From a bacterium (GTDB lineage: Bacteria; Margulisbacteria; Marinamargulisbacteria; GCA-2716485; GCA-002719695): a stretch of 43,588 nucleotides of DNA. Positions 2,548 to 31,324 of this stretch are shown here, in pieces. How positions within the stretch are numbered: the first letter of the stretch is position 1; every line of letters begins with the position of its first letter. The notes below the pieces were generated by a model. It made no database searches. It had not been told where the DNA came from and saw only the letters and a list, made by a program, of their open reading frames with translations. The position numbers and the translations under genes are program-made. Location: the NCBI GenBank assembly GCA_002719695.1, contig PBEQ01000008.1, forward strand, positions 14,725 to 58,312, in the 5' to 3' direction.

Positions 2548-3201
2548 GTGTATACTAATGTGAAACAGCTACAAGTTTATTTAAATAAGGCTCGATTTGG
2601 AATATTTGTATTATTTATATGGATGTTTTTATATAATGGGTATAGTTTTTCAGAAACATCTAATACATTGATAGATATTAGCAATTCTAGTCAATATAGT
2701 TTATCTATCCTCAAAGATATTTCAAATGGATTAACGGATTTTTTTGGTATTATTAATAGAAAAGTTGGAAGTAAGGCAACAAATATTAATAATAAAGACA
2801 ACAAACTCGTTATTTTATCTATGAGCTTTAATCAATTGTCATCATCTCCAAATAGTTTGGGTAATATTATTGATCCCGATGAAGATGTTGAACCTGCTGT
2901 AACAAGTAAGCCCTTGGTATATCCAAACCCATTTAGACAATCAACACAGAATGGTGCTATTTTGTCATATGATTTGTCTAAAGATTTTTCATTTGAAATT
3001 CATATCTATAATATGTTGTCACAGCGCGTGTTTAAGCAAACATTTCAGGAGGGTGGCCCTGGCGCTAGAAAAGGAGCGAATAGATTGCAGATTAATCAAG
3101 AATCATTAGGGGGTTATTTATTATCATCAGGTGTTTATTTTTATGTGTTTGTTCATAATCAAGATGTGTTAGCAAAAGGTAAAATGGTGGTGAAACCATG
3201 A
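2548..3201 (+). CDS. Exported protein with C-terminal T9SS-sorting-domain-like / FlgD-like Ig domain
   Basis: Hydrophobic N-terminal signal-like segment. C-terminal ~100 aa read LVYPNPF...LSYDL...IHIYNMLSQRV...LSSGVYFY...KGKMVV, resembling the type A T9SS CTD pattern. Confidence 0.7.
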   Translation: MYTNVKQLQVYLNKARFGIFVLFIWMFLYNGYSFSETSNTLIDISNSSQYSLSILKDISNGLTDFFGIINRKVGSKATNINNKDNKLVILSMSFNQLSSSPNSLGNIIDPDEDVEPAVTSKPLVYPNPFRQSTQNGAILSYDLSKDFSFEIHIYNMLSQRVFKQTFQEGGPGARKGANRLQINQESLGGYLLSSGVYFYVFVHNQDVLAKGKMVVKP

Positions 3202-4178
3202 TTAAATTAAGATTATATATAATACTTTTATTGTGTATGTTTTGTGTGTCTTCAAATGAGGCATTTGAAACATATTACTTTTCTCCAGATAGTGTGGGTT
3301 CTTCTGCAAGATCGATTCGATTAGGCGGTGTTGAAGGGATGAGTTCACACGCTGATTCTGTATTTGAAAATCCAGCTGCATTGTATCGAATCAAGCGGTT
3401 TTCAAGTTCTTTTTTTCAAACTGAGTTTATGGAAGAGGTTGTGTATCAAAATGTTGCATTTGCAACGCGAACGTCATTTGGCGTTTTTGGGGTTGGTTTT
3501 TTTAATGTTGGTGTTGATAACATTCCTAAAACAGATAAAATCGAGTATGAGGATTATACAGATTATTTTGTGAGATATTATTTTAACTATCAAAACTCTT
3601 TGCTAAAAGGATCGTATCAATATTCTGTATCAGATTATATTCATATTGGCGTTTCTGGTTCTTATTTTTTTAATGATTTTGATACAGTTCGTGGAAGTGG
3701 TTATAACGGTGATTTTGGACTTTTGCTAGATCTTGGCCGATTTGAATTTTCTATGTTAATTCGTAATTTAATTTCATCTAACGAAGTTTTGTACACGGAT
3801 TCGGAAGTTGGTGATAATAGTAGTGATGGAATTACAGAAAAGCTTTCCATTCAAAACATTTATTCGGTAAACTATAAATTAAGGAACTTCACAATGTATG
3901 GTCAATTTAAAACAGTTGGGGAGCAACGAGAGTTGCATAATACGCTTGGATTACAGTTTAATCCACGATTTTTACCTTTTTTAAAAGGATCTGTGGCTTA
4001 TAAACAATATCCTCTTGTTGCTTATGAGGAAGGTGATTTAGCAATGCAAGATAAAAACTCTTTGGTTTTTGGATTAGAACTTAATTTATCAGGTTTGCAT
4101 TTTAATTATGCTTATGAGAGAAGCGATCATATTCAATTTGAACATAAAAATTATTTTTCAGTGGGGTTATCGTTTTAA
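3198..4178 (+). CDS. Outer-membrane beta-barrel, PorV/PorQ-like (FadL/UPF0164 superfamily)
   Basis: Signal peptide, N-terminal GSSARSIRLGG...ADSVFENPAAL plug motif, amphipathic beta strands and a terminal Phe (SVGLSF). ATGA overlap with the upstream gene. Confidence 0.75.
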   Translation: MIKLRLYIILLLCMFCVSSNEAFETYYFSPDSVGSSARSIRLGGVEGMSSHADSVFENPAALYRIKRFSSSFFQTEFMEEVVYQNVAFATRTSFGVFGVGFFNVGVDNIPKTDKIEYEDYTDYFVRYYFNYQNSLLKGSYQYSVSDYIHIGVSGSYFFNDFDTVRGSGYNGDFGLLLDLGRFEFSMLIRNLISSNEVLYTDSEVGDNSSDGITEKLSIQNIYSVNYKLRNFTMYGQFKTVGEQRELHNTLGLQFNPRFLPFLKGSVAYKQYPLVAYEEGDLAMQDKNSLVFGLELNLSGLHFNYAYERSDHIQFEHKNYFSVGLSF

Positions 4179-4193
4179 TGACATGTTAAAAAA

Positions 4194-7100
4194 ATGTGGG
4201 TATTTATGACATTAGAAATTAGAAAATATTTAATCTTGATTTTCTTATTTATCACAACAGGGTTGTACGCTGGGTATAATGACATGGTTCTTACTCCTTA
4301 TTTGTATGATCATCTTAAACAAGAGCCTTATAATGGTAATTTTGATATTAGAGTAGGCTTTGTAACTGCTAATTATTATAAGAATATGTTTATTTGTCCT
4401 TATTCAGAATCGGATTCTTCTGAATGTCACTTAATCAATGCAACTGTTAATAATGGGCAGACTGTATTAAAACTTGAAAACATGGACGATCTAGATGCTC
4501 TAATTACTGCCAATCTGCAACTTAAATTAAAACTTGATAGTGGTGTTTCAATTATCCCAGAGGATGATAATTATCTTTTTAATTCATCGGCTTTTAGCAT
4601 CTTGAGCTATAAAACTGACTATGTTCAATTTCCTCAAGCTGAAAAGTTAGTTTCTTCATCTAGCTTTGTTAATCCTGTATTAGTTGAATCGGATGTTGAT
4701 TTTGGTTGGATGTTGTTTTCTAAAACAGCTCCTTATCTAGGAAAAAGAGATAGTGCTCAAAATGTTATGGTTGATGTGGCTACTATTAATGTTAAAGAAA
4801 ATTTATATGTAAATGGTCAGCCAATAGGAGAGAGTTTTTTATGGAAAACAAGTAATAAAGGAAGGATTTATGTTGAAACTGGTGTTGATTTAGCGATTAA
4901 GAAATTTTCTGATGGTGTGCCTGTTGGGGAGCCATTATATAGCGTTCAAGTTGTTGGTTCTATTGCTGCAAATGAGTTTTTTCAATCGGATAGTCCTTTT
5001 ACACTTTTTTCAGATTGGGTTACTCGTGATGCTCGTCCAGAGTATTTAGAGCCAGTAAATACCGAAGTTATGTATTTTGAAAAAGTTACACAAAATATTG
5101 GTTTTGGAGTGGCAGATCTCAAAGATAGATTAAATTCAAATGGCATATTATTAACAGGTAATATTAACACTAATACAGTTACATCTGGATCGGTCTTTTT
5201 TAAGAATAATGAATTTTTTGGTGTTAAACATCAAGCTGGTAGCAATGAAATTGTAACGTTTAATCCTATTCAATCAAATGGAAGTGAAAATCAGTTAGCC
5301 TTTTTTAATGATGCTAATAATATTAGCAGTGATCCGAGAGCAAAAATACAGACTAATTCTAATTCGACTGTAACATTATTTGATACGGAACGTTTTTTTC
5401 GTTTAACAGATTCTTTTGCTGTTGTATCTTCAAAAAATAATTATTTGTTTGGTATTAATTTTGATCAAGGAAATGTTGTTATTTCAAAAAATACTGATTT
5501 TGGATATAAACTGGGTGTTAATGGAAAAATTGATGCCAAAGATTATTATTTGCGTGGGTTTCCAATATCTATGCAAATGGCTTCAGGGGAATATTTTTAT
5601 CGAAATTTAGCTGTTTCTACAGAGGATAATTATAAAATTTATTATGATAGAGGTCATATTGCATTGGGTGCTTTTGAGTCTATGGATTCGCGATCTAGTT
5701 TAGAAATTGGAACTCCATTAAGGGAAGATAATCAGGTTCCAATCAATCCAGCTTTGTCTTTTACAAAAAGAGCTCAAGGTTCAGGAGATGATACTGGTTA
5801 CTCTTTGGGTATTAATAGCTCATATAATGATCAATTTTTTTTAGTTAATGGGTATGATTTAAATGTTAATGATCCGTTGTTATCTATTAAGAAAAATTAT
5901 TTAGGAATGGGTATCGTTGAGGCCAAGGCTAATTTACATGTTTCTGGAAATGCAGGAGTATTAATTCAAGGCCAGTTACGGTTTTTTGATGATGTATATC
6001 GTCAGGATGTCATCGATGCGTTTAATCAACCTGGGTCACAGCTTCAATTTAATCCGTATAGTGCTTCATTTAGATCAGGTATGTTTTTTGATTCTGAAAA
6101 TTATTTTACAAATGTCGGTGTTTTTTCTGCTGGTACGGGCTATTCTAACCAGGTTAGTGGCAACTTAGCTGCTGCTTTAGGTGGTGCTAGTCAGCGTGTT
6201 GCAGGTTTTTATTCAACGGCTATGGGTGGGACTTCCAATGATATTCTTTCGGGATTTTCGTTTTCAGGTGGAAAAGGTTCTTATATTGATCATCATGGAT
6301 CATTTGTTTTTTCTCATAGTGGGTTTTTGCCGGTTGGTGTAACAAGTATTTCTCAAGATGACCGTTTAAAAACTACTGATACAAGACAGTTTCTAATTGG
6401 AACACCTCAAAACTCGTTTGCGCCTGCTTATTTAGGGATAAATACTAATAATGCTTATGGATTAGCGACGATTAAAGCACGATCTATTGTTCCCAGTGTT
6501 TTTGAGGAAATGTTATCGTTATCTTCAAGTAATGCAACTATTTTAGTTAATGCCTTAAAAGATGAAAAATTTATTGATTCAGATGGTGATTTATTGGTGT
6601 ATAAAGATCGCTATTTTACACAATATTTTTCGGCAAATGACTTGCCTATTATTGCTAGTATTAACTCGGTTCAGGTTTATCAAAACCTTGTAGCCACTTT
6701 AAATAACAATAACCACAATTATTGGAATTCTAACAATGCTATTACGAGTACTAATTTGAGAGAATGGGCGCTTGTTCCAACAGGTAATTGGGATGACTTA
6801 TTTATGCCCGTTTTAGATGGGAATTCATCTACTCCCGTATTTAATAATAATGCTAACGTGGGAATTAGGTTTCATACATTATTTGTGAGTAAAAATGTTT
6901 CTAAGACAGCTGAAAAATTTAATGATGCTCTTAAAACTATAGGTATCTATGATGAGAATTCATCATTTAAGCAGTGTGGTAATTATGGAACGTGGTCTAC
7001 ATCTACTATTACTAGTGATATTATTGAGGGATATGTTGATACCATAGATTCTGTCCTTTCTAATGAATTAGAAAGCTTTACTAATATAACGACAACCAAT

Positions 7101-10100
7101 GTAAAAGATTTTATGGTGGAAGAATTAGATAAAGAGGGTGTTGATTGTGATGCTTGGCAAGATTTATATATTACGATTGCCACTGTAAACAAGAAAATTT
7201 ATCAAAAGGATGTTGATGTTCCCAATTTTGAAGCATCATTTTGCGACGGAAGTGATACTTGGCAATGTCAATACACATATTATGCATATAGCAACTATTT
7301 AAGTTCAACCGTTTATAGTCAATTATTTGATGCTATTCGTAGTAATATCGATCGCTTTGTATTAGATTTAGATAGTGTTGCATCTGGATCTTATTTGCTT
7401 TCTGATTTGGATCAGGGATTTATAGATGATATCAGTTTTGATGGTAGTACTTCAATTACTAGTGTTGATGTACAAGCTGTTTTAGAAAAACTTTTAACAA
7501 CGAATATCGTATTATTGGAAGGTCAAAATCAAGATGCTGTTTTTCGTGTTCAAAATAATAATAGTATCAATTTAGGATTTGATGAATTTGTTAACAATGC
7601 AGATTTTGCGATTAGTGGTAATATTGCTATCGTTGAGCCTCGTGTTGAATCGTTTATTTCTACTCCATCTTTAATCAAAATAGATAATTTATATGATCCG
7701 TATTTTGATTATAGTTCCAACCAACCGTCATCGTATGCAGATTCTCTTTTAGTAAGAAAAGCGCCTCAATCACAAGTCCCTAGTCCTACGTTTGTAATTA
7801 ATTCAAAAGGTATCGTTGGTTTAGGAGAAGTTGTTTCAACAGATTCTTATTTTTTACAGGTATCAGGAGAACTTATGGCGACTGTTTTTACAACGCCAGC
7901 TGGAGATTTAACACCGCCTGATGATGTTGTTATTGTTTTTTTGCATGAAGATACAACCCCTAATATTTATTTTACTCAAGGATTTTTGGGTTTGGGTGTT
8001 GCTAGTCCAAATTCGTTGTTACATTTAGGCTATTCTTCTTTGCATACTCCGTCTGATCCTGTTCTAACATTTGATTATTTTAATGATGACATCATAAAAG
8101 TAGGTGGAGCAAGTTCTTCAAATCCAGGATTTAAAATAGGGTCTCCGGATTCTTTTTATACAGCCCCAGCTTTGTTTGTGTCTGGAAATCAGACGGGTGA
8201 TCCACAATTACCCGGGTTTTTTACAAGCCAAGCTGGTGTTATATCTGGAAATCTCGGAATTAGTTCTACTTTACAGGTAAATACCGATAATGTGATGGAG
8301 GCAGGATTTGCAAGTAATGAAATTAAAACAAATGTATTATTTTTAAAAAATGATAATAATCAGTTTGTAAAAGTTTCTGCATCAGGGTTTCCTTGGAATT
8401 TTGATATAGACAAACGCTTAATCTATTTAAATGATGGAACATTAATTGGTATTCATACGTCTTTTCCTCAATATGATTTAGATGTTAGTGGGAATTTAAA
8501 TTTTATAGGAAACGAACAAGCTTCTTTTAATGTTCTTAATAATGTTAGGTTACATGAATTATTCTTAACAACAAATGTAACTGATGATGTTACTAACATG
8601 AACTTGGCTTTTAAGGACACTGTTGTTGATAGTAAACTATTTGTTGAATCTCAAAATTTGATCTTAAAGTTTAATAATGTTGATTTTAATCAAACAAGTG
8701 ATATTACTGCTGGAGAGGGGTATTGTGGAGATTTTGTGATTTTTCAACAATTAACGGATGTTTACTCTTCTAAGTTTCACGATCCTGATCCTGATAATGG
8801 TATTCCCCCTTGCTTTGAAGGTCCAGATACTAATTATGAGGGTTATCCTACTTCAGAAGTGAATTTTAGTTTTGATTTTAGAGATGTTACTTATAACTTT
8901 TTTACGTATAATGACACTGCGAAAGATTGGGATTTAGCAACTTCTGGAAGAGTGACTGAGAATATGTCTATCTTGGAAATAACAGGAAATATTTTATTAG
9001 ATTTAGATAGCCCTACTGTTAATACTGATATTGTTTTTCCTAGTTCTGATTCAGAGAATGTTTTGTATTTCGGTAAGTCACAGGATACGTCTATCAGGCA
9101 TAAGGGTGATTATTGGGCGGATTCGTATTCGTTTTCAGCAGTATCTCTGAATGTTGTGATTACAAATAACAGTGGTAACGATTTTACTTCAGCAATTACA
9201 GGCATTGATATTCAAATAGATAATATTGACAGTACAGGTCAAACGAAGAGTTTAACAAATGGAACGGAAGTTGTAGGTTTGTATGTTGATGTTACAAATG
9301 TTAGTGTACAAGATTCAGGAGTTGATACGAGAGGGTATCGCTATCCTGCTGTGTTTATGGGGGATGTTTTAATGGCAACATCTAATGCCTTAACACATAT
9401 AACACGAAATATGGGGGTTTTAACAGGCCGTTTAGAAACAGAGACATCGTATAATTATTTATTAGCTGTTCAAGGTACTTTAAAAGCGGTTGGTCAGAAG
9501 GCTGATCTAATTATATCAGATGGTTTGTTTTCACCTTCGTTACAAGTTAATGCTGGTTTTATCAATGCTTTTAATGCCAATATTGATTCTAATAAAGCAA
9601 GGGTTGGCATTAATAAAACGAATCCACAAGTTGAGCTGGATATTGATGGAAATATTCGCGCTTCTTATTGGGAAGCAAATAAAGGGGCTCTTCGTTCTAA
9701 TTATTTGTCTCATTCAAACGATACGTTTATTGTTAATCAAAATGGATTTGTTGGATTTGGTGTTACTGAGCAAGCTGATAATGATGGAGATGTATTATTT
9801 TACAAATTATTTGATGAAACTTCATTAGCTAATTTATCCAATGCTTTTATTTATAAATCATATCAGTTAGATGTTACTAAAGATATTACTTTTAGTAACA
9901 ATGTTACGGGTTTAAGCTTAGCATTTCCAATGGAAGACGATAATTTCTTTGGTATGATGGATTCTAGCCAGGCAACAGCTGTATTAAAAGGTTTAGATGT
10001 TAATTTGAGCGATATATCTCTTACAAATAATGCACGGTTAATTGGTGTTAGTGTTAATGTTTTGGATAATAGTAATAGTTATGCTGCTGTATTTTTAAGT

Positions 10101-13100
10101 GGAAATGTTGGAATTGGAACAGCAGATCCTGGTTATGATCTTGATGTTAATGGGACTGTTTTTGCAACGAGTTTTAATGCTTTAGAGTCAAAAATTAGTT
10201 CAGTCAATAATCTTACTGTTCAGACCTTAAATACAGCAACAGCTGCTTCTGTAACGTTTAATGTCGTTACAATGAATGCTGTTGATGTTAATACCTTAAC
10301 ATTTGGACCGAATGTTGGATTTAGTTTTGATTCTTTAGTTAGTTCTGGGGGCGGTGATATTTTAAATTTAGACTTAGATAATGATATTTCTGTTACTACC
10401 ATGAATAATGTTTCAACGTTAAATGTTAAGCAAGATAATAATTCTAAACTTATTATTTCAAATCAACTAACGGCTGTAACGGGAAATATTTTTACCAAAG
10501 TTGAATTAATGGATGGATCTGTTTCGGCTATGGAAGTTTTATTGTCGTTAAAATCGCCATCAATTAATTTAACCATTGCTGGTGATAATAAAATGAGTGC
10601 AGGATCTTTAATTGTATCTAATAATCAGTATCAAACATTAGTTGCTGATCAATCTTACTTGTATATTAATGAGAGTTTTCCTGACAGTGATAGTTATCGC
10701 TATCCTGTTAACATAGAATTACAGGTTACAACAAATACAATAAATGGTAATACGACGTCATTTGTATCAGGTAATGTTAAGTCGTGGAATGCTTTAGGTA
10801 TATTTAGTGGGGTAACTGCTAATAATAGTTTAAATGCTATTTCTTTAGAACCACATTCCAATCATCAACAAACCTGGATGGTTGTTTCTAAGCAACTTGA
10901 TAAACAAGCTAATGGTCCAATATTGACCGATACTACCCTTGATTTAAGGCTATATGAATTTGAGAACGAAGATGATAGTAAATTAGATTTTACAAATATT
11001 ACTGCAGGTAGTAATTATATAGCGCCTTCTTTGTATATAACAGCAACGGGTAACGTTGCCTTATTTCCACAGCCGGTTGATCTTCAGGATTTGGCAAGCC
11101 TAGCAACATTTAATGTTTTTGGAACGGCTGCTTTTGAAAATGTTGTGGCACCTACTTTAAATGTTGCTACTATTAATTCTATTGAAAACCTTTCTATAGG
11201 AGAGATTGGGGGCTATATAGCTGTTAATAGTACCGTTACGATGAATGCAACTATGTATGTTGCTGATAAATTAGAAATGAAAATTATGGCTACGGAAGGT
11301 AGTGATAATGATTACTTGGGTATTGTTAACGATGAATTTGCATTATATGCTGCCACGGCTAATGAGGTTGGTACTACTGCAGATTTATGGATGCATGTAA
11401 AGCGTGATGGAGGTTTTAGTGTTAGCGTTAATTTAATGCAGGATTTTACGTTTCGAAATGGTGCTATTATTGTTTTTTCTGATAAAGGGGTGCCTACACC
11501 ATCTAATTTAATGGTTACAACTAATTCATTACCTGATCATTATGTTTTGTCTTTTAATGATCCTTCAACATCCAATCGAGTATCTTTACAATCTACTATT
11601 TCAGGAGATACGGTTTTTGCTAACAATAGCATTACCTTAAATAGTTTAGATATTGGGATTGAACGTAATGAGGTTAATTCTTCTCGAGTTATTAGAGGCT
11701 TAGATATACAAGTTGCTTCTGCAAATTTAAACGATGCTATTGTTGGGTTACGGGTTTCAATGAATGGTCTTGCTAATACAACTAGTTCATTTAAAAATGC
11801 TGCCATTTTTAATGGAGGCGATGTTTTATTGGTATCTAAAAATATTGATTTTGATTCATTTTCTCTTGGAAACCCTTCCGCTAATTTCCATATTGCTTCA
11901 CGTAATATGGGGGCTTCCCCAAATTTTATTATTGCTAATAATAATTTTAATTTACTGACAGTATCGTCCAATAAGGTTGGTGTAGGTGTTTCAACAAATG
12001 CTGTTTTAGATAGTTTGGTCTATGTGGAAACGCAATCGTATTCTTCTAGCACAAACGATGGATCTCTTTTTGCTATTAAGGATCAAAATGGATTGCCTTT
12101 TATTGATATAAAGCAATCAACTAATAATCAGATTACATTAAACAGTACCGTTTTATTTCAAAATCAAGCGACATCTAATTTCACATTTTTAGATACTGAT
12201 AGCATACAACTAAATCAATCGGATGTTTTTACCTTTGATTTTATTAATCACAATATTGGTATGAGACAAGCAACTCCAATTGCTCAATTTCATGCCAAAG
12301 ATGTTTTAACTCGTGAGGTTGTTGATAAAGCAAGAAAGACAATTCAGATACTTGATGCTATTGATAATCAGAATATGAATATAACGGGTTTTGATATTTC
12401 TATTGGGTCTGAAGAAAATAATGAGATGGATGCTGCCGTTTTAAAGGCAATCAATATTGATATGACAACGTTAGATGTTGATCCAGATTCAGTAATTTAT
12501 GGTATGTATGTAGATGTAACAGAAAATGAAACAGTATCTGCTAATAGTATTGTTTTTAAACAGGGTAATGTTGGTATTGGGACTACTCAAATTAACCCAA
12601 GAGATGTGTTAGATATTGAAGGGACATTATATGTTGGAGAAAATTTGCTAACTCCATCTGATAATATTTATATTAATGCTCAACAGGTAACTGCAAGTTC
12701 ATTAGCTGTTAGTAAAGGGTTAGCTGTTAATTCAGATGTTGTATGGACTAATATCGAGACAGAGGAATTGGTTTTTTCAGAAATGTTTGATCCAACTGGA
12801 TCGCAATATTCTTTTGATTTTGATAATTTTTTTCAGGCAGATGATATTACGATTAACATTCTTTCTTTTCCCGATGTAAGTGGTACTGAATTATATCTAA
12901 AGCCTCTAGCAAAATTAGTGATAGGAACAAGTATTACTTTAGAAGATAATCAATCTATTTTAGTTGATTCTGGATCACAAAAAGTTTATATGAGAGATGT
13001 TTATATGGACAGTACCAAGGAGTTATCTGTGTCTACCATAAATGCTCAGGCTCAAATAATAGATGTTTATGGCGGTATTCGTTTAAATAACGTTGCTAAG

Positions 13101-19402: not shown

Positions 19403-20112
19403 GTATTAGTTTGATTTTAATACTTATAATTTCAGTTTGTATTCATGAATGGGCCCATGGTTATGCTGCTTTTTTGTTGGGGGATAAAACGCCAATGTAT
19501 TTAAAACGACTTACTTTAAATCCTTTACGTCATCTTGATTTGGTAGGATCTATCATAGTTCCTACTATGTTGGTAATTTCAGGTACGTCTTTTGTTTTTG
19601 GTTGGGCCAAGCCCGTTCCCGTAAATAATCGCTATTTTAAACATCCAAAATCAGGTATGTTACTGGTAGCTATGGCAGGCCCTTTAAGTAATTTTTTCTT
19701 AGCTTTTTTAATGGTTATGGTCATGCCTTTATTGGCATTTATACTAGGATCTCATGGATCGACGGAATTTTTTCTTCAGGTTTGTGTTTATGTTGTTTAT
19801 ATTAATGTAGTTTTAGGTGTTTTTAATTTGATTCCTATTCCCCCATTGGATGGTTCCTATGTTTTAATGCCGTTTATTCCTGTAAAATATCATCATTTGA
19901 TAGCACGGTTTTCTATGTTTGGATTATTTTTTGTGGTTGGATTACTATCAATTTCTTGGTTTCAAGTTTTATTTCATCGTATTATAAAAGCTAGTGTTTC
20001 TTTTTTATTTTCACTTAAAATTGAATCAATGTTTTATAATGCAATATTTTTATTGTTTTTTTCGTTCTATAATATAGGGTATAAAGGAATCTTTATGGAT
20101 TTAAGTTTATGA
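19399..20112 (+). CDS. Site-2 protease (M50) family intramembrane metalloprotease
   Basis: HEWAH zinc motif, RLTLNPLRHLD, FGWAKPVPVN, AGPLSN and FNLIPIPPLDGS. Confidence 0.93.
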   Translation: MSISLILILIISVCIHEWAHGYAAFLLGDKTPMYLKRLTLNPLRHLDLVGSIIVPTMLVISGTSFVFGWAKPVPVNNRYFKHPKSGMLLVAMAGPLSNFFLAFLMVMVMPLLAFILGSHGSTEFFLQVCVYVVYINVVLGVFNLIPIPPLDGSYVLMPFIPVKYHHLIARFSMFGLFFVVGLLSISWFQVLFHRIIKASVSFLFSLKIESMFYNAIFLLFFSFYNIGYKGIFMDLSL

Positions 20113-23100: not shown

Positions 23101-26100
23101 GTGGAAATCTTAATATTGATGGCAAACTAGCAGTAGGAACAGATAATGTGTTAAATGACTATGATGTTTTTGTTAATGGTGCTCTTGCCGTTTCTACTTT
23201 AAATATTGGGGGTTCAGATTTTGAACTACCAGACGATAATTTATGGAAGGTTAATGGTGTTAATTTGTATGCTAGTGATAATTATATCGTTTTAATTGGA
23301 ACGGATAATGCGTCGCAATCGTTAACGGATGCCCTGGTTGTTAGTGGCTCTGTTAGAGTTGATAATTTAATTATTAGTGCTAATCAATTTAAACTTGATG
23401 GTGAGTTGGCTGTTGATCACGTTAGATTTCAAGATCAAGCTGTATCGACTCAGTCTGCTAGTGTTTTTGTAGAAGGAGGAGAATTAGTTTTTGAAAAATG
23501 GGATGGAACTAAAAAGTCATTATCGTCTCCATTACAAGCTATTGAAGGTGATAGTAATCAATCAGGACCACTTGCATTTTGGGTTAATAACAATACTATT
23601 TCAAAATCACCATTTTATTGGGATGGTGGCAAAAAAGAATTAGCTATTACTTCTAATGTTGTTATTTCTAATTATGAAGTCCAAGCGAATGGTTTAGAAG
23701 TATCTACCAATGTTTCTTTTTTAGATAGTATTGGTTTTGCTATCGAGACTACTATTGATCATAAGGGGATCGCTAATTCATCAACTGATTATACGCTGTA
23801 TGATTTAGATTTAAATATTGAAGAGGATTGGGGCCGTCAAGGTACGCCGATTGCTATTAGAGGAATCGATTTGAATTTGCGTAATAATGAGGATACCTTG
23901 ATTTTAAATCAAGCATCTGTCACAGGGCTTTATGTGGATGTTACTAGTGTGAATGTTAGTGAATCTCAGTTTGGTAATAAATATGCTGCTAAGTTTTTAG
24001 GTGGTAATGTTGGAATTGGCATTGAAGATCCATCCGTTGCTCTTGAAGTAAATGGTGTTATCTCTGCTAATTATTTTAATATTACTTCAGGAATATCTAT
24101 TCCTGAGCTTGTAATTAATGAAGGTGTATATGCGTTAGTTGTTAAAAAATCCGGAACGGAGGCTCGTGTTGGTATTGGTACCGAGAGTCCACAAACTAGC
24201 TTAGATGTTGATGGAACTGTATCTGCAAATTTATTAACTGTTTCTGGTTTGTTAGTCTCCACAATGAATATAGGCGATGGAAGTTTTGTAGTTGATGCTA
24301 CTGGAAATATTGGTATTGGAACAGATTTTCCAGAAGCTTCTTTTGAAATTAATAGAGTGTTAGATGGATCAAATCAAAATAGTCCATATATTGCCGAAAA
24401 AATATCGTTAGGAATTGATGGAACAACATTAGTTGGTCAAACATATGTTTTTCAGCAAGATCTTACGGGATTGTATCTAGATTTAGATACAATGACAAAT
24501 TCATCAATTCAAGATGCTGAAATTAGAGGACTTGATCTTGATTTGGTATCGGTTAACTTGCGAGGAGATTCTAAATTATATGGTATGTATGTTGATGTTG
24601 GGGCTCCTCAAACTGAAAATAAAAATCGCTATGCTGCTGTTTTTCTAAATGGAAATGTTGGTATTGGAACAGATAATCCAACTGAAGAACTAGTTGTTAG
24701 CGGTAGTATTAAGGCGGACACCTTAATATTGTCAGAAGGCCTTGAGTTTCAGACTGGCATTACAGTTAATAACTCACTTGTTGTGGAGGATGTTGCAAGT
24801 ATGAATAGGGTTTCTATTAATCATTTATATGTTGAAGATTCTTTTTCAGCTAAAAATCTATCATTTGATAATACAGATATTCAGGCAGATAATGCTACCT
24901 TTGGTACAATAACGGCTAATCAAATTTTAGATGTTTCATATGCTAGTATCGATACGGTTTCAGCAAATAACATTGAAGTTAACAACGCTGTTTTTACAGA
25001 TGCCTTATCTGTTGCAACTGATAACATAGAACCAAATACATTAATGGTTAATGGGACTATCAAAGCAATTTCTGCTATTTTTACTGATACTGTGACGGTT
25101 CCTACCTTATCAGTTAATAATGGCACTACGTTGTTTGCTGGAAATAAAAAAGTAGGTATTGGTACAGATACACCAGAGTCTGCATTGCATATTATAAGTA
25201 GTCCAGATAGTGCTTTTGATCAAGCAAATACGGAAACCTGGAATGCATTAAAGATGGGTGTAGATACAGATATTTCTGGACAAACGGTTGGATTTTTATT
25301 TTCTCCTGATGAGCAAGTATCACAAAATATAGGATCAGGGATTTTAGCTCAACGAACAGAATTTGGACAATCTAGTTTATTATTTTTAACGGATCCACCT
25401 AATGATAGTCCTAAAGTAAGGATGATAATTTCGGATGAAGGAACTGTCGGTATTGGTGATATCTCTAACCCTTTAACATTTTCACAAAAAGATTCTAGTA
25501 ATGAGCCTGTAACATTATATGTAAATGGAACAGCAACATTTACCGATACTGTAACAATGGATCGATTGGAAGTTTCTGAAATTACGGGCGAAGTTAACTC
25601 TCTTATTATTAGTGCTAATAATGGGATTGGTTTTCGTGGTGATGTTAGTTTTAATAATCGTGTTCAACTTGATAAGGCACTGGCTTTTAAAAACTCTCGT
25701 AGTTTACAGATTCAACCAACTGAAGTTCCTAGTTCTGTTGGTTATTTGTATGTCTATAATAACGATTTATTTTATGTCAATCAGTCATCATCCAAAAATA
25801 TTTCCTCAGTGTATTCTGGAGACCCTGGAAAAGTTCCCGTATTTGATGATGAAGGTACTTTAAAAAGTTCGTATCCATTATCATTTAATGATAATACCTT
25901 TACAATAGGTACTTCTAATTCTTATACGCAATTTAAACTTGAATCTGTTGTTTCTTCGGATGATTCTGTTGGTGTTCAAGAAATTATTGTTACATTTGAT
26001 AACCGAACTGGTTCTAATACTAGATTTGTCGCATTTGATATTCAAATGGAGGGAGATGATACCTCTGACAGTCTTGGTATTAATGATACTGCTATTGGAC

Positions 26101-29100
26101 TAAATATTGATGTATCGCGTTTGTCTGGTCAGTCAGCAAATGATAATAAGTATGCGGCTATATTTAATGGAGGAAATGTGGGCGTTGGTATATCAGATCC
26201 TGGCGCTCTGTTACATGTTAAACAAGCTGAAAGTGAGAATATATTTCGTGTTGATGGCGATAACTTTATTAGTTTAATGGTTTCTAGTACGGGTAATGTA
26301 GGTGTTGGAACGGCAACTCCGTTAGCCTTATTTGAAATTAAAAAACCTGTTGCTTCTTATCAAGATGATTTGTTTAAAATTGTTTCAGATAATGTTGAGT
26401 TATTAAGGGTATCGTCTAATGGATCTCTTGTTATTCAGGGGGATGTTTCTGCTAATCTTGGTGTTTTTGATGTTGTTAGTGCCAACGCTCTTCGCATTGC
26501 GGATGGTATGTTTTTTGTAAGTTCTAATGGGAATGTTGCTATTGGTACAGATAATGTTGACTTAGGTACTATAACAATTTTAAAGGAGATAGATTCAGCT
26601 CAGACTTCAGATTACATCGGTGAAAAATTAGATGTTGTAATTGATTTTGAAGGGGATGGCGATTTAACGGGAAGTAACTCAAATTGGGATGCTGATTATA
26701 CGTATAATAAAGATTTAACGGGGTTTGATATATCCCTTTCTAATGCTAATGCTAATCAATTTGGGGATTCTAATGACACAGTAATTGCTAAAGGGATTAA
26801 TGTGACTATGAATAACCTAGATCTTGGTTCTAATGCAAAGGCTTATGGTTTATATGTTGATGTTGGGAATGAAGACAAGGGCGGTACTCGCTATGGTGCT
26901 TATTTTAATGGCAATGTAGGTATTGGAACGTTAACGCCAACGTATTCGTTAACGGTTAGTGGCAATGTCTATAGTTCGGGACTAATTGTTGATGGAAATG
27001 TTTCTGCTAATCAGTTAACGGTTAACAATATTATCGTAAATGGTCTTTTAAATGTTGCTGGAGATGTAACGATTAATGGAACATTAACAGCTACAACGAT
27101 TACAGCAAATTCTTTAATTGTAGATGGTGCGGTTCAAGCTGGAGAAGGTATTTATAACACCGTTACGGTTAATCAAAGATTATTTTTACCTCAATCGAGT
27201 CAATTAATTGTTGGAATGGAGGATGGTTTTTCGGATTCAAATTATATTATGTATGTTAGCGGAAATGTAACGTTTAATGGAATTGTTGATGTTGATAAAT
27301 TAAATGTATCAGTAATTTCAGCTAATAATACAACGATTAATATTAGTAGTGTAATAAGTGCTAATAAAATGATTTCAGGTGAGACTATTAGTCTTAATAT
27401 GGTGCAATTTAGTAATAGTGGTTCTACTGTACCAAATTCATTGTTTGTTGATGGCAATAATTTGTATTTTAATAATAGCTCAAGCTCTCCAATTGATTTA
27501 ACATCTTTTTTAACTTCCGAGTATCCTAATCGAATTCCTGTTTATCATGGTTCAACTCTTACCTTAACTTCAAATGTGTATGCATTACAATTTAAAAATA
27601 ATGATACGTTGCAATTGGGAGGAAGTTTAAGTGCTGGAACCTATCAAAACTTAGGATTAGAAATTGGTGGTCAGGTTACTAAGAATTTTACGGGTCATCT
27701 TGTTAGTGTTAATGTTAAAAATGTGACTAGTGGCTCTAAAAACTTTACCGGTGTAAAAATAAACTTTAAGTCAGAGAATTATGGTGGACCTGATCCAAAT
27801 TTATGGGGCAGACTTTCTGAGGGGGACTCAGCTGTTGGTCTTCATGTTGATTTACAGCAATCTTTAGGAGATTATTATGGATTAGGTGGTAATGTTATTG
27901 CTCCAAAAAAATATGCAGCGCTTTTTAATGGAGGACTTGTTGGAATTGGGACAGATACTCCTCAAGCGGCCTTACATGTAAAGCAGTATGAAAATTATTT
28001 TAATATTAGAAAAGATATTTTTAGAGTGGATACCTTTGGAAGTACTACTCCTGCTTTTCTTGTTGATAAAGATGGTAGGGTAGGGATTAATTCTTTAATG
28101 GATAATGATGCCATTACTGCTCAATTTGTTATTGAAGCGGATTCTACAATAAATCCTTTTGTTGTGTCTAGTAACTCAAAGGTTCAGTTTTCGGTCCAAA
28201 CTAATGGTGTAGGGATTCAAACGGAGACTTTAGGAGGAGCTACGTTAGCGGTATCAGGTAATATGTTTGTTAGAGATAGTTTGGGGAATGACCAATTTTT
28301 TGTAAGTGATGATGGGGTAGCAATAGGTCATACTATTCCAACTGCAGATTTAGACATTAAGGGGGATGGAAGTAAGGCATTGCTAAGAATAAGTGATGGT
28401 GTTAATGATCACGTTTATGTGGATAAGGCTGGTAAATTTTATATGGGGACGTTTAATAGTTCTGATGTCCAGGGAACTCCTTTGTATGATTTCAATATCA
28501 TTAATCCAACAAGTAGTATTGCTTTGATTTCTAATAATAATGATCCATTTGCTACTGTAGGTTTACCAACAAAATTAACCGCTCCAGGCAATAACCCTTA
28601 CGGTGTTTTAGCTGTTAATGGTAGTAACAATAACAATAACTTGCTTTTTATGGGACATGTTACAGCTAATGAATCACTTGTATTATTTGGAGGTAGTAAT
28701 AGTCCTCAATTAAATATTGTTGCCTCAACTGATACGAAAGAAAAATTAATTATGGATGTTACTACGCAAGGCTTGGGAATTAATCGCGATTTTCGTACTG
28801 ATACGGCTTTAGCTGTTAGTGGTAACTTTTTTGTTGGCGCTGATGCTAATAATGCTGCCTTTGTTGTAAGTCCTAATAGTAACTTTGTTGGTGTGAATAC
28901 TACAACTCAAATTGGCTCTGAAACGATGAGAGTGGCTGGATCCTTACTTGTTGATGAGCTGGAAGTTGCTGAAGGTGGTATTACGATTACTACCTTAAAT
29001 GTGAATGGCCAATTTGTTTTAAATGATACCTTGAATGGTACATCAGGATCCACATTTGTTGATTTATATGAGTCGGTTTCTTTGAATATAAAGCTAAATA

Positions 29101-30752
29101 CCGATATGACTAATAAGCTATATGGATTAAAAATAGATATGAATTCTAATACAGCTCCTGAATCGGATGAGGATCCTAACTATTTAATGGCAGGTAATGC
29201 GGATGCTTATGGTATTCATGTTGATATGTCTGATTTAAAGGTAGCTGGAGCTGCTTCTGGTACTTATTATGAAAACCTTTTTGGTAATAAGTATGCTGCT
29301 GCTTTTATGGGAGGTGCTGTTGGTATTGGAACGGAAACCCCACGTTATCCTTTAGAAGTAGTGGGTGAATCTAATAGTGTTCTTGCTGGTTTTGGAAGTA
29401 TTGGTTCTGGAATGGTTATTAGGGATTATGGGTTAGGTAAATTAGGAATAAATGTAATTAATGATAGTGTTAATTCTAGTTTAGAGCATATTGGTATTAC
29501 GATTAAGGCTTCTGAAACCAATGGCTCTGGCTATGCTCCTGCATTAGTTGGTATTGGAACTCTAAATCCTGATAAAGCGTTGGTTGTTAATGGAGATATG
29601 CGTTTGGGTGTTCGATCGTTAAATTCTGTAGCTGGTCTATATGGCCGCTATGGAAATAAATTGTTTTTTTCAGGTGGGCCAAGTTATGGTTTAGATAGTG
29701 ATAATGGGGATGATTTGTTTATTGCTAGGTATAATGTTGAGGATAAATCGTCTCATTTACGAGTTAACTTTTCAACTATCAATTCTGATTCGAATGATGA
29801 AGCTGGTGTAGCAAATGGGACAGATCAATTTGTTGTTGGATATACAAAAAGTTCTGGATTGTATCAACCTATTTTAAAGGTTCATAATAATTCAAGAGTT
29901 ACTGTATGGGGCGATACAACCTTAACTACTCAAGCTCAAGATTATTTACCCGATTCAACGTTACATGTTAGAGGGTCAGGTTCTACAAACGATTCAGTAT
30001 TTGGAGATTATACGGCTACTTTAGAAAGAAGTGGTGGGGTTGATAGTGGCGTGCTAGCGTTATCTTATGATACATCAGAGTCGTTAAGTGAAAAGTCAAA
30101 ATTTATTGGTTTTTATAGTGCTCAAACCTTAATTGGTTCAATTGAAGGAAATAGTAATGGTGGTATTCGTTTTGTAACATCAGGTGCGGATTATGCAGAG
30201 TATCTTAAGAAAAAAGATAGTATGGAGTCGTTTGAAAAAGGTGATATTGTAGCGGTTGTTAATGGAGTTATATCAAAAGATACTAGTGATTTTCAGCAGT
30301 TAATGGTTTTAAGTAGTGCGGCTGCTATTGCAGGTAACTGGCCACAAGGTAATAAAGACGATTTTGAGTTGGTTGCATTTTATGGTCAGGTACCAACAAA
30401 GGTAAAAGGTCGTGTGAGCAAAGGAGATTTTATTTTAGCTGGATTTGGTAATGATGGCATTGGTATTGCTAAATCTCAAGATAGCTTAAGTTCACAAGAT
30501 CGTAGTCGTATTGTTGGCCGAGCTTGGGAGTCATCAAATGATCGTGGTGTAAAACTAATTAATACGGCAGTTGGCTTTTCTTTTGGGAATTATTCACTTA
30601 ATGATGAAATGGCTCAACTAAATAATTTAAACAAACAATTAGATGGTCTTCGTTCTGAAAGAGATGATTTATTATCAACGTATCAAACAACTTTAGAAAA
30701 ACAGTCTCAGCATATAGAGACATTATTAATGAAACTTGAAAATAGTCGTTAA
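20109..30752 (+). CDS. Giant (3547 aa) secreted tail-fibre-like adhesin with C-terminal peptidase-G2-like autocleaving chaperone (giant 2)
   Basis: 10.6-kb ORF. Signal peptide, N-terminal ISFDVQLADSSGPLNG...NGVASFVLG...LPSVPYS domain, many GNVGIGTxxP...L(E/D/H)VxG repeats, GGxxNxAxG beta-roll repeats (~21870-22250), GADYAEY...GQVPTKVKG...IVGRAW domain (~30190-30590) and coiled coil. Confidence 0.82.
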   Translation: MKQFLVYLCLIVMLVISNNSVLIAHNDSHELAIDSNYNFIVPPRISFDVQLADSSGPLNGNYFVTIRIGSKANINENYDMVPFRWIRSFSNVNFQNGVASFVLGDNSNPITPNDLSDSDTVIQIEVNQLTAAFPLPSVPYSIYSQSSLHAEEIKAENIIGSFITTMNISNDFIVSKNGEIAVYIDSTNQRVGVGKKPDSSYEMDINGSVNAAAYFIQGSSIGEIFSWTKKDGNLFYNGNVGIHTEDPQYALHVSGNISAEEYFVVMEDANTGAKQYVTLEDHLAAQGLNWKSDANETNRLGIYYIAGNVGIGTSENIVESLVVSGAIKLSESIQDADDIKPGTIEYRENDFIAYSDAGEFSLTGIKIDPNSDNLNSIPRGSIPYFVADGFLDVTDNFKVVTSNDFFGVAIGTDNTTAALTVQGNGQDSYLEVLSEQNEPVFIVNKDGNISVGTTNINENIKFKIDGIVDATEFLKNGNPLASSLSENSFWNIGETHYGELNQAATDLFYSAGFVGIGTASPKNMLELSSSTDSVALTFDINDVDLFTIGITSENASTFVISQGSNLDLPIFSFSTKNIGVGLSEPKVSLHVSGNAGFLVEGETDLTYSLSQDFPEPVTGSAMFYYPVRAAFRAGYASDLEWSDANLGAYSAAFGYNNIASGLASFVGGGYENVASGDYSVVPGGILNKAIGDYSFAGGYYASALHNGSFVWADTTSSLNRFESAQNNQFLIRAYGGVGINTNQTSESALTVQHQGSGDILRLIGSGASDQTIGVSSKGQFYMGDQPSPSHDDAKLLVSGRVGVGTDDPKALFHIENTDDEQAYLMYIKGSSSTNASSNVFVITNTGNVGIGTEHPTVKLAVSGNIKADSFLMVDPDDPTAVIQLQPSNGSPFQMYTGLGRSDAYRLQGFIGLGTMTPNTLLELSNQNDVQALPIITFDYNDVDIVQMGLITSNEGVFFAIAPSSNFTSENATFVITGNSVILGRGVVPPNTNFALDVSGNLNIDGKLAVGTDNVLNDYDVFVNGALAVSTLNIGGSDFELPDDNLWKVNGVNLYASDNYIVLIGTDNASQSLTDALVVSGSVRVDNLIISANQFKLDGELAVDHVRFQDQAVSTQSASVFVEGGELVFEKWDGTKKSLSSPLQAIEGDSNQSGPLAFWVNNNTISKSPFYWDGGKKELAITSNVVISNYEVQANGLEVSTNVSFLDSIGFAIETTIDHKGIANSSTDYTLYDLDLNIEEDWGRQGTPIAIRGIDLNLRNNEDTLILNQASVTGLYVDVTSVNVSESQFGNKYAAKFLGGNVGIGIEDPSVALEVNGVISANYFNITSGISIPELVINEGVYALVVKKSGTEARVGIGTESPQTSLDVDGTVSANLLTVSGLLVSTMNIGDGSFVVDATGNIGIGTDFPEASFEINRVLDGSNQNSPYIAEKISLGIDGTTLVGQTYVFQQDLTGLYLDLDTMTNSSIQDAEIRGLDLDLVSVNLRGDSKLYGMYVDVGAPQTENKNRYAAVFLNGNVGIGTDNPTEELVVSGSIKADTLILSEGLEFQTGITVNNSLVVEDVASMNRVSINHLYVEDSFSAKNLSFDNTDIQADNATFGTITANQILDVSYASIDTVSANNIEVNNAVFTDALSVATDNIEPNTLMVNGTIKAISAIFTDTVTVPTLSVNNGTTLFAGNKKVGIGTDTPESALHIISSPDSAFDQANTETWNALKMGVDTDISGQTVGFLFSPDEQVSQNIGSGILAQRTEFGQSSLLFLTDPPNDSPKVRMIISDEGTVGIGDISNPLTFSQKDSSNEPVTLYVNGTATFTDTVTMDRLEVSEITGEVNSLIISANNGIGFRGDVSFNNRVQLDKALAFKNSRSLQIQPTEVPSSVGYLYVYNNDLFYVNQSSSKNISSVYSGDPGKVPVFDDEGTLKSSYPLSFNDNTFTIGTSNSYTQFKLESVVSSDDSVGVQEIIVTFDNRTGSNTRFVAFDIQMEGDDTSDSLGINDTAIGLNIDVSRLSGQSANDNKYAAIFNGGNVGVGISDPGALLHVKQAESENIFRVDGDNFISLMVSSTGNVGVGTATPLALFEIKKPVASYQDDLFKIVSDNVELLRVSSNGSLVIQGDVSANLGVFDVVSANALRIADGMFFVSSNGNVAIGTDNVDLGTITILKEIDSAQTSDYIGEKLDVVIDFEGDGDLTGSNSNWDADYTYNKDLTGFDISLSNANANQFGDSNDTVIAKGINVTMNNLDLGSNAKAYGLYVDVGNEDKGGTRYGAYFNGNVGIGTLTPTYSLTVSGNVYSSGLIVDGNVSANQLTVNNIIVNGLLNVAGDVTINGTLTATTITANSLIVDGAVQAGEGIYNTVTVNQRLFLPQSSQLIVGMEDGFSDSNYIMYVSGNVTFNGIVDVDKLNVSVISANNTTINISSVISANKMISGETISLNMVQFSNSGSTVPNSLFVDGNNLYFNNSSSSPIDLTSFLTSEYPNRIPVYHGSTLTLTSNVYALQFKNNDTLQLGGSLSAGTYQNLGLEIGGQVTKNFTGHLVSVNVKNVTSGSKNFTGVKINFKSENYGGPDPNLWGRLSEGDSAVGLHVDLQQSLGDYYGLGGNVIAPKKYAALFNGGLVGIGTDTPQAALHVKQYENYFNIRKDIFRVDTFGSTTPAFLVDKDGRVGINSLMDNDAITAQFVIEADSTINPFVVSSNSKVQFSVQTNGVGIQTETLGGATLAVSGNMFVRDSLGNDQFFVSDDGVAIGHTIPTADLDIKGDGSKALLRISDGVNDHVYVDKAGKFYMGTFNSSDVQGTPLYDFNIINPTSSIALISNNNDPFATVGLPTKLTAPGNNPYGVLAVNGSNNNNNLLFMGHVTANESLVLFGGSNSPQLNIVASTDTKEKLIMDVTTQGLGINRDFRTDTALAVSGNFFVGADANNAAFVVSPNSNFVGVNTTTQIGSETMRVAGSLLVDELEVAEGGITITTLNVNGQFVLNDTLNGTSGSTFVDLYESVSLNIKLNTDMTNKLYGLKIDMNSNTAPESDEDPNYLMAGNADAYGIHVDMSDLKVAGAASGTYYENLFGNKYAAAFMGGAVGIGTETPRYPLEVVGESNSVLAGFGSIGSGMVIRDYGLGKLGINVINDSVNSSLEHIGITIKASETNGSGYAPALVGIGTLNPDKALVVNGDMRLGVRSLNSVAGLYGRYGNKLFFSGGPSYGLDSDNGDDLFIARYNVEDKSSHLRVNFSTINSDSNDEAGVANGTDQFVVGYTKSSGLYQPILKVHNNSRVTVWGDTTLTTQAQDYLPDSTLHVRGSGSTNDSVFGDYTATLERSGGVDSGVLALSYDTSESLSEKSKFIGFYSAQTLIGSIEGNSNGGIRFVTSGADYAEYLKKKDSMESFEKGDIVAVVNGVISKDTSDFQQLMVLSSAAAIAGNWPQGNKDDFELVAFYGQVPTKVKGRVSKGDFILAGFGNDGIGIAKSQDSLSSQDRSRIVGRAWESSNDRGVKLINTAVGFSFGNYSLNDEMAQLNNLNKQLDGLRSERDDLLSTYQTTLEKQSQHIETLLMKLENSR

Positions 30753-31245: not shown

Positions 31246-31324
31246 TGATCGTCTTAAAATAAGTGTTTCATGAGATTGATATAACGTATATAATATAGTT
31301 TGATTAAAAATTGGGAGTTTAATT

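Follow-up and report, generated by a model that had tools for sequence, protein, structure and literature searches.

Two giant fibre-like proteins encoded behind a CTD-only protein and a PorV-like barrel in a conserved locus of Candidatus Marinamargulisbacteria

Phage-like trimeric fibres encoded by cells have been described in the predatory bacterium Bdellovibrio, where the MAT (mosaic adhesive trimer) proteins have a signal peptide followed by an invariant N-terminal domain of ~130 amino acids (aa) and a meandering trimeric beta-helix, with an S74 chaperone in 13 of the 21 (PMC10769870, Caulton et al. 2024). The model of one of them, Bd3182, measures ~550 angstrom for ~760 residues, or ~0.72 angstrom per residue, and the passages of that paper concerned with the cell surface leave open how the fibres are fixed to the outer membrane and what their surface partner is (PMC10769870). 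The phi29 appendage has a chaperone too, from which it is auto-proteolytically freed, as stated in the relevant part of PMC4690869. In type IX secretion systems (T9SS), C-terminal domains (CTDs) are associated with cognate outer-membrane barrels: the known pairs are the CTD of PorZ on PorQ, the CTD of PorU on PorV and type-B cargo with PorP/SprF (PMC10202324, PMC10994853). According to the sections of the 2023 review that deal with CTDs, an uncleaved CTD stays on its barrel at the cell surface, which is suggested for other PorV-like barrels as well, and CTD proteins are restricted to the Bacteroidota and track the T9SS core (PMC10202324). Here we analyse a locus in a 43.6-kb stretch of DNA (43,588 nucleotides (nt), positions 14,725 to 58,312 of contig PBEQ01000008.1, assembly GCA_002719695.1), called the window throughout, in which two giant proteins, G1 and G2, are encoded together with a CTD-only protein and a PorV-like barrel. 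From sequence comparisons we put at about 0.6 the probability that this locus is a chromosomal and conserved cassette that encodes very long cell-surface fibres, with an adaptor-barrel pair at the outer membrane.

The host is Candidatus Marinamargulisbacteria, and the assembly comprises 1.33 Mb in 53 contigs and is 74% complete. Marinamargulisbacteria are presented as aerobic heterotrophs of the ocean in part of PMC6349859, a text in which the words 'pili', 'adhes' and 'secretion' occur nowhere. A high incidence of very large genes has been reported for the Margulisbacteria in the relevant part of West-Roberts et al. (bioRxiv 2023.11.21.568195). Candidatus Marinamargulisbacteria, Margulisiibacteriota and marine metagenomes supplied relatives both of the giants and of the locus.

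The nature of the giants emerged from profile searches. A profile of the G2 family, made from an alignment of 18 sequences and searched against PDB sequences, matched the Bdellovibrio MAT Bd2133 (8ond) at E 1.1e-14 and other Bdellovibrio MAT chains at E 2.1e-9 (8oml), 3.6e-6 (8ol4), 3.6e-5 (8on4) and 6.8e-5 (8ojn), the latter four entries being titled Bdellovibrio 'cell wall surface anchor'. The same profile matched the head of UspA1 (3pr7, E 1.7e-14; 3ntn, E 2e-6) and, weakly, MyRF (7dc3, E 1.3e-3). Matches were obtained with profiles alone, as single-sequence searches of the PDB (P0001, P0002 and the C-terminus of G2) returned nothing useful. The matches to MAT and UspA1 cover the G2 family, and G1 is tied in through hhalign, which aligned the two families with a probability of 100 across 3293 columns. 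Because of this alignment G1 and G2 are read as colinear paralogues, to all appearances ancient ones with the same layout: by sequence, both consist of a signal peptide, an N-terminal domain (NTD) of ~120 aa, MAT/tail-fibre-type beta-helix modules extending over thousands of residues, one YadA/UspA1-like head segment, a C-terminal chaperone domain and a coiled coil. The signal peptides were judged by eye and without a predictor, a basic and then hydrophobic N-terminus being present on G1, G2, the barrel and the CTD-only protein. At the level of sequence, the stalk follows the pattern of MAT fibres, an intertwined beta-helix with V-G-G/N capping motifs. The PHROG tail-fibre families phrog_9942 (E 5.2e-14) and phrog_18345 (E 2.1e-8) matched G2 at residues ~716-868, and the protein P0018 bears PF05658. 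G2 contains 21 GNVGIGT-like motifs and G1 contains 6, beyond all of 1000 shuffles (mean 0.75 and maximum 5 for G2; mean 0.57 and maximum 4 for G1). Combined, these matches point to giants that are homologous to proteins solved as intertwined trimers and that are relatives of MAT and tail-fibre proteins, differing from them in size, chaperone type, organism and genomic setting.

In the giants themselves no anchor was recognised. LPxTG was not found in either protein, Pfam searches with the whole giants and with chunks of 500 aa returned no autotransporter, SLH or other family and no YadA-type C-terminal barrel anchor, and none of the six matches of the CTD model TIGR04183 in the genome falls in G1 or G2. 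Matches to Botulinum_HA-17, Spore_YunB and S100PBPR lay below the Pfam cut-off and were taken as chance. The original prediction, made from the letters of the window, had given both giants signal peptides, GNVGIGT repeats, a kinship with trimeric fibres and with C-terminal autocleaving chaperones, and a closing DYAE domain with coiled coil, and had denied them an autotransporter barrel, LPxTG, SLH domain or T9SS CTD of their own; each of these points agrees with the analysis described here, the chaperone kinship as a matter of homology (see below).

The two paralogues differ in the way they vary. G2 is the conserved one, with orthologues throughout the class that are colinear, 30-50% identical and interrupted by few gaps. 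G1 is the variable one, its orthologues being 10-25% identical with many insertions and deletions, and its variability peaks at residues ~3900-4500, just N-terminal to the chaperone domain. In this region a strain ~95% alike, from a sequencing run of another study and colinear with the window over 5973-19458, has 82 different letters at 17203-17301 against 97 here. G1 contains 20 cysteines, which appear to be paired, and G2 a single one, within the signal peptide. The signal peptides and the 20 paired cysteines of G1 argue for an extracytoplasmic location of the giants.

The C-terminal domain opens with the motif DYAEY, located in G1 at residue 4599 and in G2 at residue 3361, which is followed by ~130 residues and a heptad-like tail rich in E, K, L and Q. 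Over their last ~250 residues G1 and G2 are 36% identical, and the residues D, Y, A, E and Y, with a K three residues on, are invariant in 24/24 C-terminal domains. When 350-aa C-terminal pieces were searched, PF11962 (Peptidase_G2) matched G2 at 18.5 bits (E 1.4e-3) and G1 at 15.1 bits (E 1.6e-2), and two homologues, P0012 and P0023, bear precomputed PF11962 hits. A profile of the DYAEY domain matched the released chaperone of phi29 gp12 (3gqh, E 2.6e-3), with DYAEY aligned on residues 1-5 (DFAEY), and the chaperone domain D4 of the Dpo31 tailspike (28nb, E 1.5e-3), with DYAEY at the start of the domain; a second motif, GQVxVKV, likewise aligned with the chaperones of 3gqh and Dpo31. Thus, as in proteins of the Peptidase_G2 type, an acidic, putative cleavage motif opens the C-terminal domain after a beta-helical fibre, and on these alignments the domain is a distant chaperone of the phi29 gp12/Peptidase_G2 type. 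Since DYAEY lines up with the opening residues of the auto-released gp12 chaperone, cleavage is predicted just before the Asp of DYAEY, that is before D4599 in G1 and D3361 in G2.

The domain belongs to a family that, as far as sequence matches tell, is large and mostly cellular. It counts 5866 cluster representatives when the threshold is E <= 1e-3, and 1732 when it is E <= 1e-30, and it is C-terminal in 150 of the 150 matches listed, ~48 of which are at least 2800 aa long. Proteins of 300-1300 aa or more that bear it also occur in Bacteroidota, Ignavibacteriota, Chlorobiota, Gemmatimonas and Phycisphaerales. At the DYAEY loci of these other phyla the models found no barrel or CTD within the 3-kb flanks, which are too short for proteins of >1000 aa, except at two loci (L063 and L102) with a CTD open reading frame (ORF) downstream. 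Within the class, the C-terminal domain of G2 is present in 23 of 41 genomes, mostly as a tandem pair 10-13 kb apart; in two of the genomes counted as negative (G013 and G038) the giant runs off the end of the contig. PF13884 (S74) has no match in the window's genome, the giants ending in the DYAEY domain instead.

Set beside the Bdellovibrio MATs, the giants are alike in being cell-encoded and in having a signal peptide, an N-terminal domain of ~120-130 aa, a long beta-helix stalk and a C-terminal chaperone of a type known as auto-processing, with the two N-terminal domains compared in size and position (PMC10769870, in the parts describing the fibres). In contrast, the fibres of the window exceed MATs 3.5- to 5-fold in length (3547 and 4786 aa compared with ~1000), their chaperone is of the phi29 gp12/G2 type with DYAEY whereas that of MATs is S74 with SDxxxK, they form a conserved tandem pair behind a CTD-only/PorV-like cassette, and their marine host, unlike Bdellovibrio, is not known as a predator. 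With phi29 gp12 and Dpo31 (3gqh, 3suc, 28nb) they share a C-terminal domain placed after a beta-helical fibre and the motifs D-[YF]-A-E-Y and GQ[VIL]xV[KR]V, but the kinship is very remote (E 1e-3 to 3e-3), a C-terminal coiled coil is added and the family is large and cellular. Each giant has one head-repeat segment like the trimeric autotransporters YadA and UspA1, but ends in a chaperone domain and has no YadA-type anchor.

The PHROG tail-fibre matches and the phage-type C-terminal chaperone are what would be expected of a decayed prophage, of a tailocin locus or of a recent transfer of a phage tail-fibre gene. Such an origin is very improbable given the surroundings. A Pfam scan of every ORF of at least 100 aa not nested inside a larger one found no capsid, terminase, portal, baseplate or sheath family in the window, in line with the original prediction, and no phage structural, replication or lysis family at all. 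The G+C content of the window is even (0.28-0.36), the same housekeeping genes flank the locus across the families of the class, and a phage collection of 50,697 records yielded 11 weak partial DYAEY matches, with 32% identity over 39% of the domain. With housekeeping flanks, class-wide synteny and weak partial phage matches only, the locus is regarded as cell-encoded and chromosomal and not as mobile, which leaves the prophage or tailocin origin that the original prediction had named as its refutation without support.

The first gene of the locus encodes a protein made of a signal peptide, a variable linker of ~80 aa and, from 'YPNPF' onwards, a T9SS type-A CTD. TIGR04183 matched this CTD-only protein over residues 124-216 at 28.1 bits, above the cut-off of 23, and it matched 10/10 of the orthologues; PF18962 scored 18.4 bits, under its cut-off of 27. 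The second gene product has a signal peptide and the C-terminal sequence ...SVGLSF, and was matched by NF033709 PorV_fam (E 7.5e-9, 35.6 bits) and by PorQ (NF033711; E 1.6e-5, 24.2 bits). Among 10 barrel orthologues, PorV_fam matched 8 at the threshold of E <= 1e-3 (best E 5.4e-17), PorQ 7 and PorV2 6, and the best barrel paralogue in the window's genome scored 59.6 bits. On the strength of these family matches the protein is a distant PorV/PorQ-family-like outer-membrane barrel. Profiles of the CTD and of the NTD found no credible match in the PDB.

The CTD and the barrel stand in genomes in which the tested T9SS core was not found. SprA_N (PF14349) and GldK (TIGR03525) had no match in 9/9 Marinamargulisbacteria genomes, of which 7 are at least 90% complete, GldL, GldM and GldN not being included in the search; in a Psychroserpens control genome the SprA_N and GldK searches matched at 437 and 600 bits. 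The PorU model was matched through its CTD part alone (positions ~920-1094), and TIGR04189 had nothing in the window's genome. As SprA_N and GldK had no match in any of the nine genomes, CTDs and PorV-like barrels are considered to occur here without the tested T9SS core. The reading of these two genes as a CTD-like protein and a PorV-like barrel forming a reduced T9SS-like pair is thereby upheld, orthologues included. We found no literature linking Margulisbacteria with type IX secretion.

The pair is not the only one of its kind in the window's genome (G000). PorV-like barrels adjoin all 6 places matched by TIGR04183, and similarity to the pair of the window revealed a seventh CTD-like/barrel pair on C27. 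Across these sites (contigs C1, C3, C27, C32, C47, C48 and the window) the pairs are of two kinds, a barrel with a cargo that carries its own CTD and a barrel with a CTD-only protein. Two of the sites, C3:3955-12900 and C48:256-9287, are near-parallel, each with an FtsK-like protein, a YebC-like protein, a CTD protein of ~1065 aa and a fourth protein (~803 aa) whose N-terminus is PorV-like; they may reflect a duplication or two co-binned strains. Three further giant ORFs lie outside the window in the same genome, at C1:21893-41836, C6:12542-27924 and C43:1-6900. A giant of 6157 aa has its own T9SS type-A CTD at the end, behind one and a half PorV-like barrels, another of 5127 aa leaves its contig and one of 2300 aa is truncated. 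Together with G1 and G2, the genome has five ORFs of at least 2300 aa, which make up ~4.9% of the 1.33-Mb assembly.

By sequence the cassette resembles the cognate CTD-carrier pairs of T9SS, a type-A CTD beta-sandwich and a PorV/PorQ-family barrel being encoded side by side, but it lacks the tested core (SprA and GldK not found, PorU matched in the CTD part only) and its CTD stands on a separate, passenger-less protein, the presumed cargo being encoded apart and free of a CTD. The phylum, moreover, lies outside the Fibrobacteres-Chlorobi-Bacteroidetes (FCB) group, to which CTD proteins are restricted in the relevant section of the review (PMC10202324).

Such a pair might act as a dedicated carrier or exporter working through some secretin or divergent translocon, possibly releasing the fibre, and not as a static anchor. 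T9SS offers a precedent: PorV is a carrier whose extracellular loops bind CTDs, and the genes of type-B cargo are grouped with those of the cognate PorP/SprF (PMC10994853, PMC10202324, in the parts on carriers). Secretin genes were found in 4/5 genomes searched, one of them (PF00263, 74.7 bits) on the contig of the window at G000:C8:4949-5437, ~10 kb upstream of the window start. One cassette may also serve two tandem NTD cargos, as with G1 and G2, or as at a locus of a relative (L114, G036:C7, 6803-8883) where two tandem NTD proteins lie behind a CTD-only/barrel cassette, the first of 452 aa with S74 and a coiled coil, the second with collagen-like G-x-y repeats. A role as carrier is nevertheless judged unlikely: no translocon partner was identified, SprA_N and GldK being missing from the nine genomes, and a cargo without a CTD cannot load as T9SS cargo does.

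The link between cassette and fibres was assessed through gene order in relatives, the check that the original prediction had called for. In 9/9 relatives whose context could be read, the genes for the CTD protein and the barrel stand immediately upstream of a G1-type giant, and in 5/9 of those relatives the genes further upstream of the cassette differ. The order CTD protein, barrel, G1, (XerD, M50), G2, CxxC protein, orf158, YchF is kept across the families of the class. In a wider survey, 51 barrels were examined out of 53 matches of at least 100 bits, two matches at contig edges (G017:C38 and G017:C358) being set aside and those of <100 bits left out, and a triple was defined as a CTD-only protein, a barrel and a large ORF on the same strand starting within ~150 nt. 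Clear triples were found for 38/51 barrels. Their cargos are of several types: 10 are G1-type, 4 belong to a third, shorter DYAEY type of 1000-1700 aa (G036:C14, G027:C2, G035:C204 and G011:C123), 1 is S74-terminated (G036:C7) and 23 are others, a group divided into 16 with a match to the G2-family model and 7 without one. S74-terminated proteins with the NTD exist in relatives.

The cargos have the NTD in common. This domain of ~120 aa follows the signal peptide, shows the pattern W.E...F..G.F...LG...VPYA across cargo types and was matched by its model in 30/38 cargos at residues ~20-165, 12 of the 30 being training rows of the model. The model reached E 2.9e-32 in the window's own genome and the NTD was found in 93/121 genomes of the phylum. 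Barrels are also numerous in other classes of the phylum; there the NTD stands directly behind a barrel at G052:C28 and G071:C3, which is not so in G047, G053 and G082. One genome of another class (G046, 1.6 Mb) gave 33 matches to the NTD model, far above any other genome searched. Because the triple recurs (38/51) and the cargos share the NTD, the CTD-only/barrel pair is put forward as a candidate for fixing the fibres to the outer membrane.

From these elements the following sequence of events can be proposed. Sec would export all four proteins, and the barrel would insert into the outer membrane. The fibre chains would trimerise starting at the C-terminal chaperone, which would then be cut off just before the Asp of DYAEY, leaving the mature fibre. 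The CTD-only protein would remain on its cognate barrel, like the CTD of PorZ on PorQ, and this adaptor-barrel pair would serve to hold or to carry the fibre's NTD at the outer membrane, with the variable cysteine-rich tip of G1 distal and pointing outward. A separate CTD-only adaptor makes sense in such a scheme because the C-terminus of the fibre is taken by a chaperone that leaves. That the giants trimerise, cleave themselves, are displayed on the surface, bind the barrel pair and attach to a host, prey or particle is something that we infer, and the anchoring model is drawn from gene order and domain logic. If the rise per residue of the Bd3182 model is extrapolated, mature G2 would be ~0.24 and mature G1 ~0.33 micrometre long. 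A more specific version, in which the CTD-only adaptor on the PorV-like barrel is a translocon-less derivative of T9SS parts that serves as a universal outer-membrane socket for the shared NTD of trimeric fibres, is offered tentatively and would have somewhat less than an even chance of being right.

The giants could also be periplasmic or sheath-like filaments, tethered from inside by the barrel pair and not exposed as adhesins. The conservation of G2, unusual for an adhesin with its 30-50% identity and few gaps, would suit such filaments, and so would the lack of an evident outer-membrane export route in the SprA and GldK searches. We consider this improbable, however, as all solved relatives (MAT fibres, the UspA1 head and phage spikes) are surface-exposed (PMC10769870, in the parts treating these structures), as the hypervariable, cysteine-rich part of G1 before the chaperone is what a distal binding tip would show, and as the related strain has replaced an 82-nt stretch within it.

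Returning to the surface-fibre cassette, a number of observations weigh against it. First, some of the assignments are distant: the barrel scores lie under the curated cut-offs of 90 (NF033709) and 220 bits (NF033711), the barrel profile has no match among PDB sequences even though structures of PorV are available, and both PF11962 scores are under the gathering cut-off of 25 bits. The NTD of the window's G1 has diverged so far that the NTD model does not match it at E 0.01, and the model misses close orthologues of G1 too; hhalign does align these N-termini, that of the window's G1 included. Second, parts of the mechanism are awkward. CTD proteins normally reach the surface via SprA, which was not found here, and the crossing of the outer membrane is left unexplained. 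The cleavage of phi29 gp12 is reported to be ATP-dependent, which would be awkward outside the cell. Third, cassette and fibre do not always go together: among the surveyed barrels, 3 CTD/barrel pairs have no fibre behind them (G000:C27, G001:C35 and G002:C14) and 5 barrels have neither CTD protein nor fibre (G037, G034, G019, G030 and G013:C57), the remainder being 2 ambiguous, 1 cut by the contig end and 2 partly unreadable. Conversely, giants of the G2 type do not have a cassette to themselves, a cassette is likewise missing beside a 1196-aa NTD/DYAEY protein at G012:C4, and only 3 of 44 S74 matches adjoin a barrel match.

Synteny alone is weak evidence in this respect, since unrelated neighbours such as G2-CxxC-orf158-YchF keep their order too. 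The adjacency of cassette and giants could hence be an inherited gene order, with the CTD/barrel pair acting alone and G1 and G2 anchored or released otherwise, and the fibreless pairs, the CTD-less barrels and the NTD/DYAEY proteins devoid of a cassette are in keeping with this, as is the pairing of other barrels in the same genome with cargo carrying its own CTD. The distribution of the triple makes mere inheritance quite improbable. It occurs at several non-orthologous loci per genome with cargos of differing type, accounting for 38/51 barrels, it extends to at least one further class of the phylum (G052:C28), and it stays intact while the genes further upstream vary.

The locus would extend cell-encoded, phage-like trimeric fibres from the predatory Bdellovibrio to an uncultured marine phylum, in the form of fibres that are three to five times longer, that carry a different chaperone, predicted to be self-cleaving, and that take up a large share of a small genome. 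In genomes where the searches for SprA and GldK had no match, it presents CTDs of the T9SS type and PorV-like barrels encoded in pairs. If the proposed function of the cassette is true, recognition between CTD and barrel exists, and perhaps arose, outside T9SS and the FCB group; if in addition the NTD is the same as the N-terminal domain of MATs, the cassette would name the kind of surface partner to be expected for MAT fibres. The DYAEY domain, finally, defines a large family that Pfam hardly detects.

The locus consists of six ORFs on one strand (Table 1), consecutive ones overlapping by 4 nt at 3198, 18551, 19399 and 20109 and being separated by a gap of 15 nt at 4179-4193 between the barrel gene and G1; G1 and G2 together span 25,005 nt. 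This matches the arrangement first described, namely six co-directional genes with these overlaps and gap, and ~25 kb taken by two giants. A single DNA contig of 4862 nt spans the end of G1, XerD, M50 and the start of G2. Scans for promoters and terminators gave counts close to those of shuffled sequence (88 vs 97.7, 10 vs 9.2, 66 vs 75.0 and 10 vs 7.1) and carry no information on operon structure.

Table 1. Features of the locus (positions in the window)
Feature	Positions	Strand	Remarks
CTD-only protein gene	2548-3201	+	217 aa, ORF 1 of six
Barrel gene	3198-4178	+	326 aa, ORF 2 of six
Giant G1	4194-18554	+	4786 aa
G1 DYAEY domain and coiled-coil tail	17988-18551	+	predicted auto-released intramolecular chaperone
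XerC/D-type gene	18551-19402	+	283 aa
M50 gene	19399-20112	+	237 aa
Giant G2	20109-30752	+	3547 aa
NTD	20226-20591	+	G2 residues ~40-161, common to cargos behind barrel cassettes
YadA/UspA1-like head repeats	22017-22244	+	G2 residues ~637-712, by the G2-family profile
Clearest MAT/tail-fibre-like beta-helix module, GxVGIGT	22254-22712	+	G2 residues ~716-868
G2 DYAEY domain and coiled-coil tail	30189-30749	+	predicted auto-released chaperone
CxxCxxCC gene and 158-aa ORF	30736-31801	+	neighbours 3' of G2, not claimed as parts of the system

The original prediction had counted six co-directional genes and named four of them, the CTD-like protein, the barrel and the two giants. The two middle genes, which it had left unnamed, were identified by family searches as a XerC/D-type recombinase (TIGR02225, 268.9 bits, under the cut-off of 329.6) and an M50 peptidase, a small membrane metalloprotease with the motif HEWAH (PF02163, E 3.8e-12). 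The genome has two Xer-type ORFs only, the one in the window included; the XerC/D and M50 pair lies on the opposite strand in two relatives (G022 and G031), while the locus of a third (G036) has no M50. For these reasons XerC/D, as a housekeeping gene, and M50 are probably bystanders trapped between the paralogues. The idea that a XerD-like recombinase shuffles the giants was rejected, as recombination between direct paralogues leads to deletion and not to inversion and as the Xer count fits a housekeeping XerC/XerD.

On its upstream side the locus is flanked by genes for MazG, SepF, a YggS-like protein and DUF218, and downstream by those for the CxxCxxCC protein, the 158-aa ORF, YchF, a VCA0040-like protein, an M16 peptidase, a methyltransferase and the ATP synthase operon, all as assigned by Pfam with the exception of the 158-aa ORF, for which no Pfam family was found. 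The CxxCxxCC gene (PF03692, E 3.6e-5) runs 17 nt into the stop end of G2. In relatives with that context downstream of G2, the 158-aa ORF was present in 8/8 and the CxxC gene in 7/8. Within the ATP synthase operon, the c-subunit gene at 38617-39324 encodes 235 aa with three PF00137 stretches, which suggests, as far as the family matches go, a fused multi-hairpin form in place of the usual single hairpin of ~80 aa.

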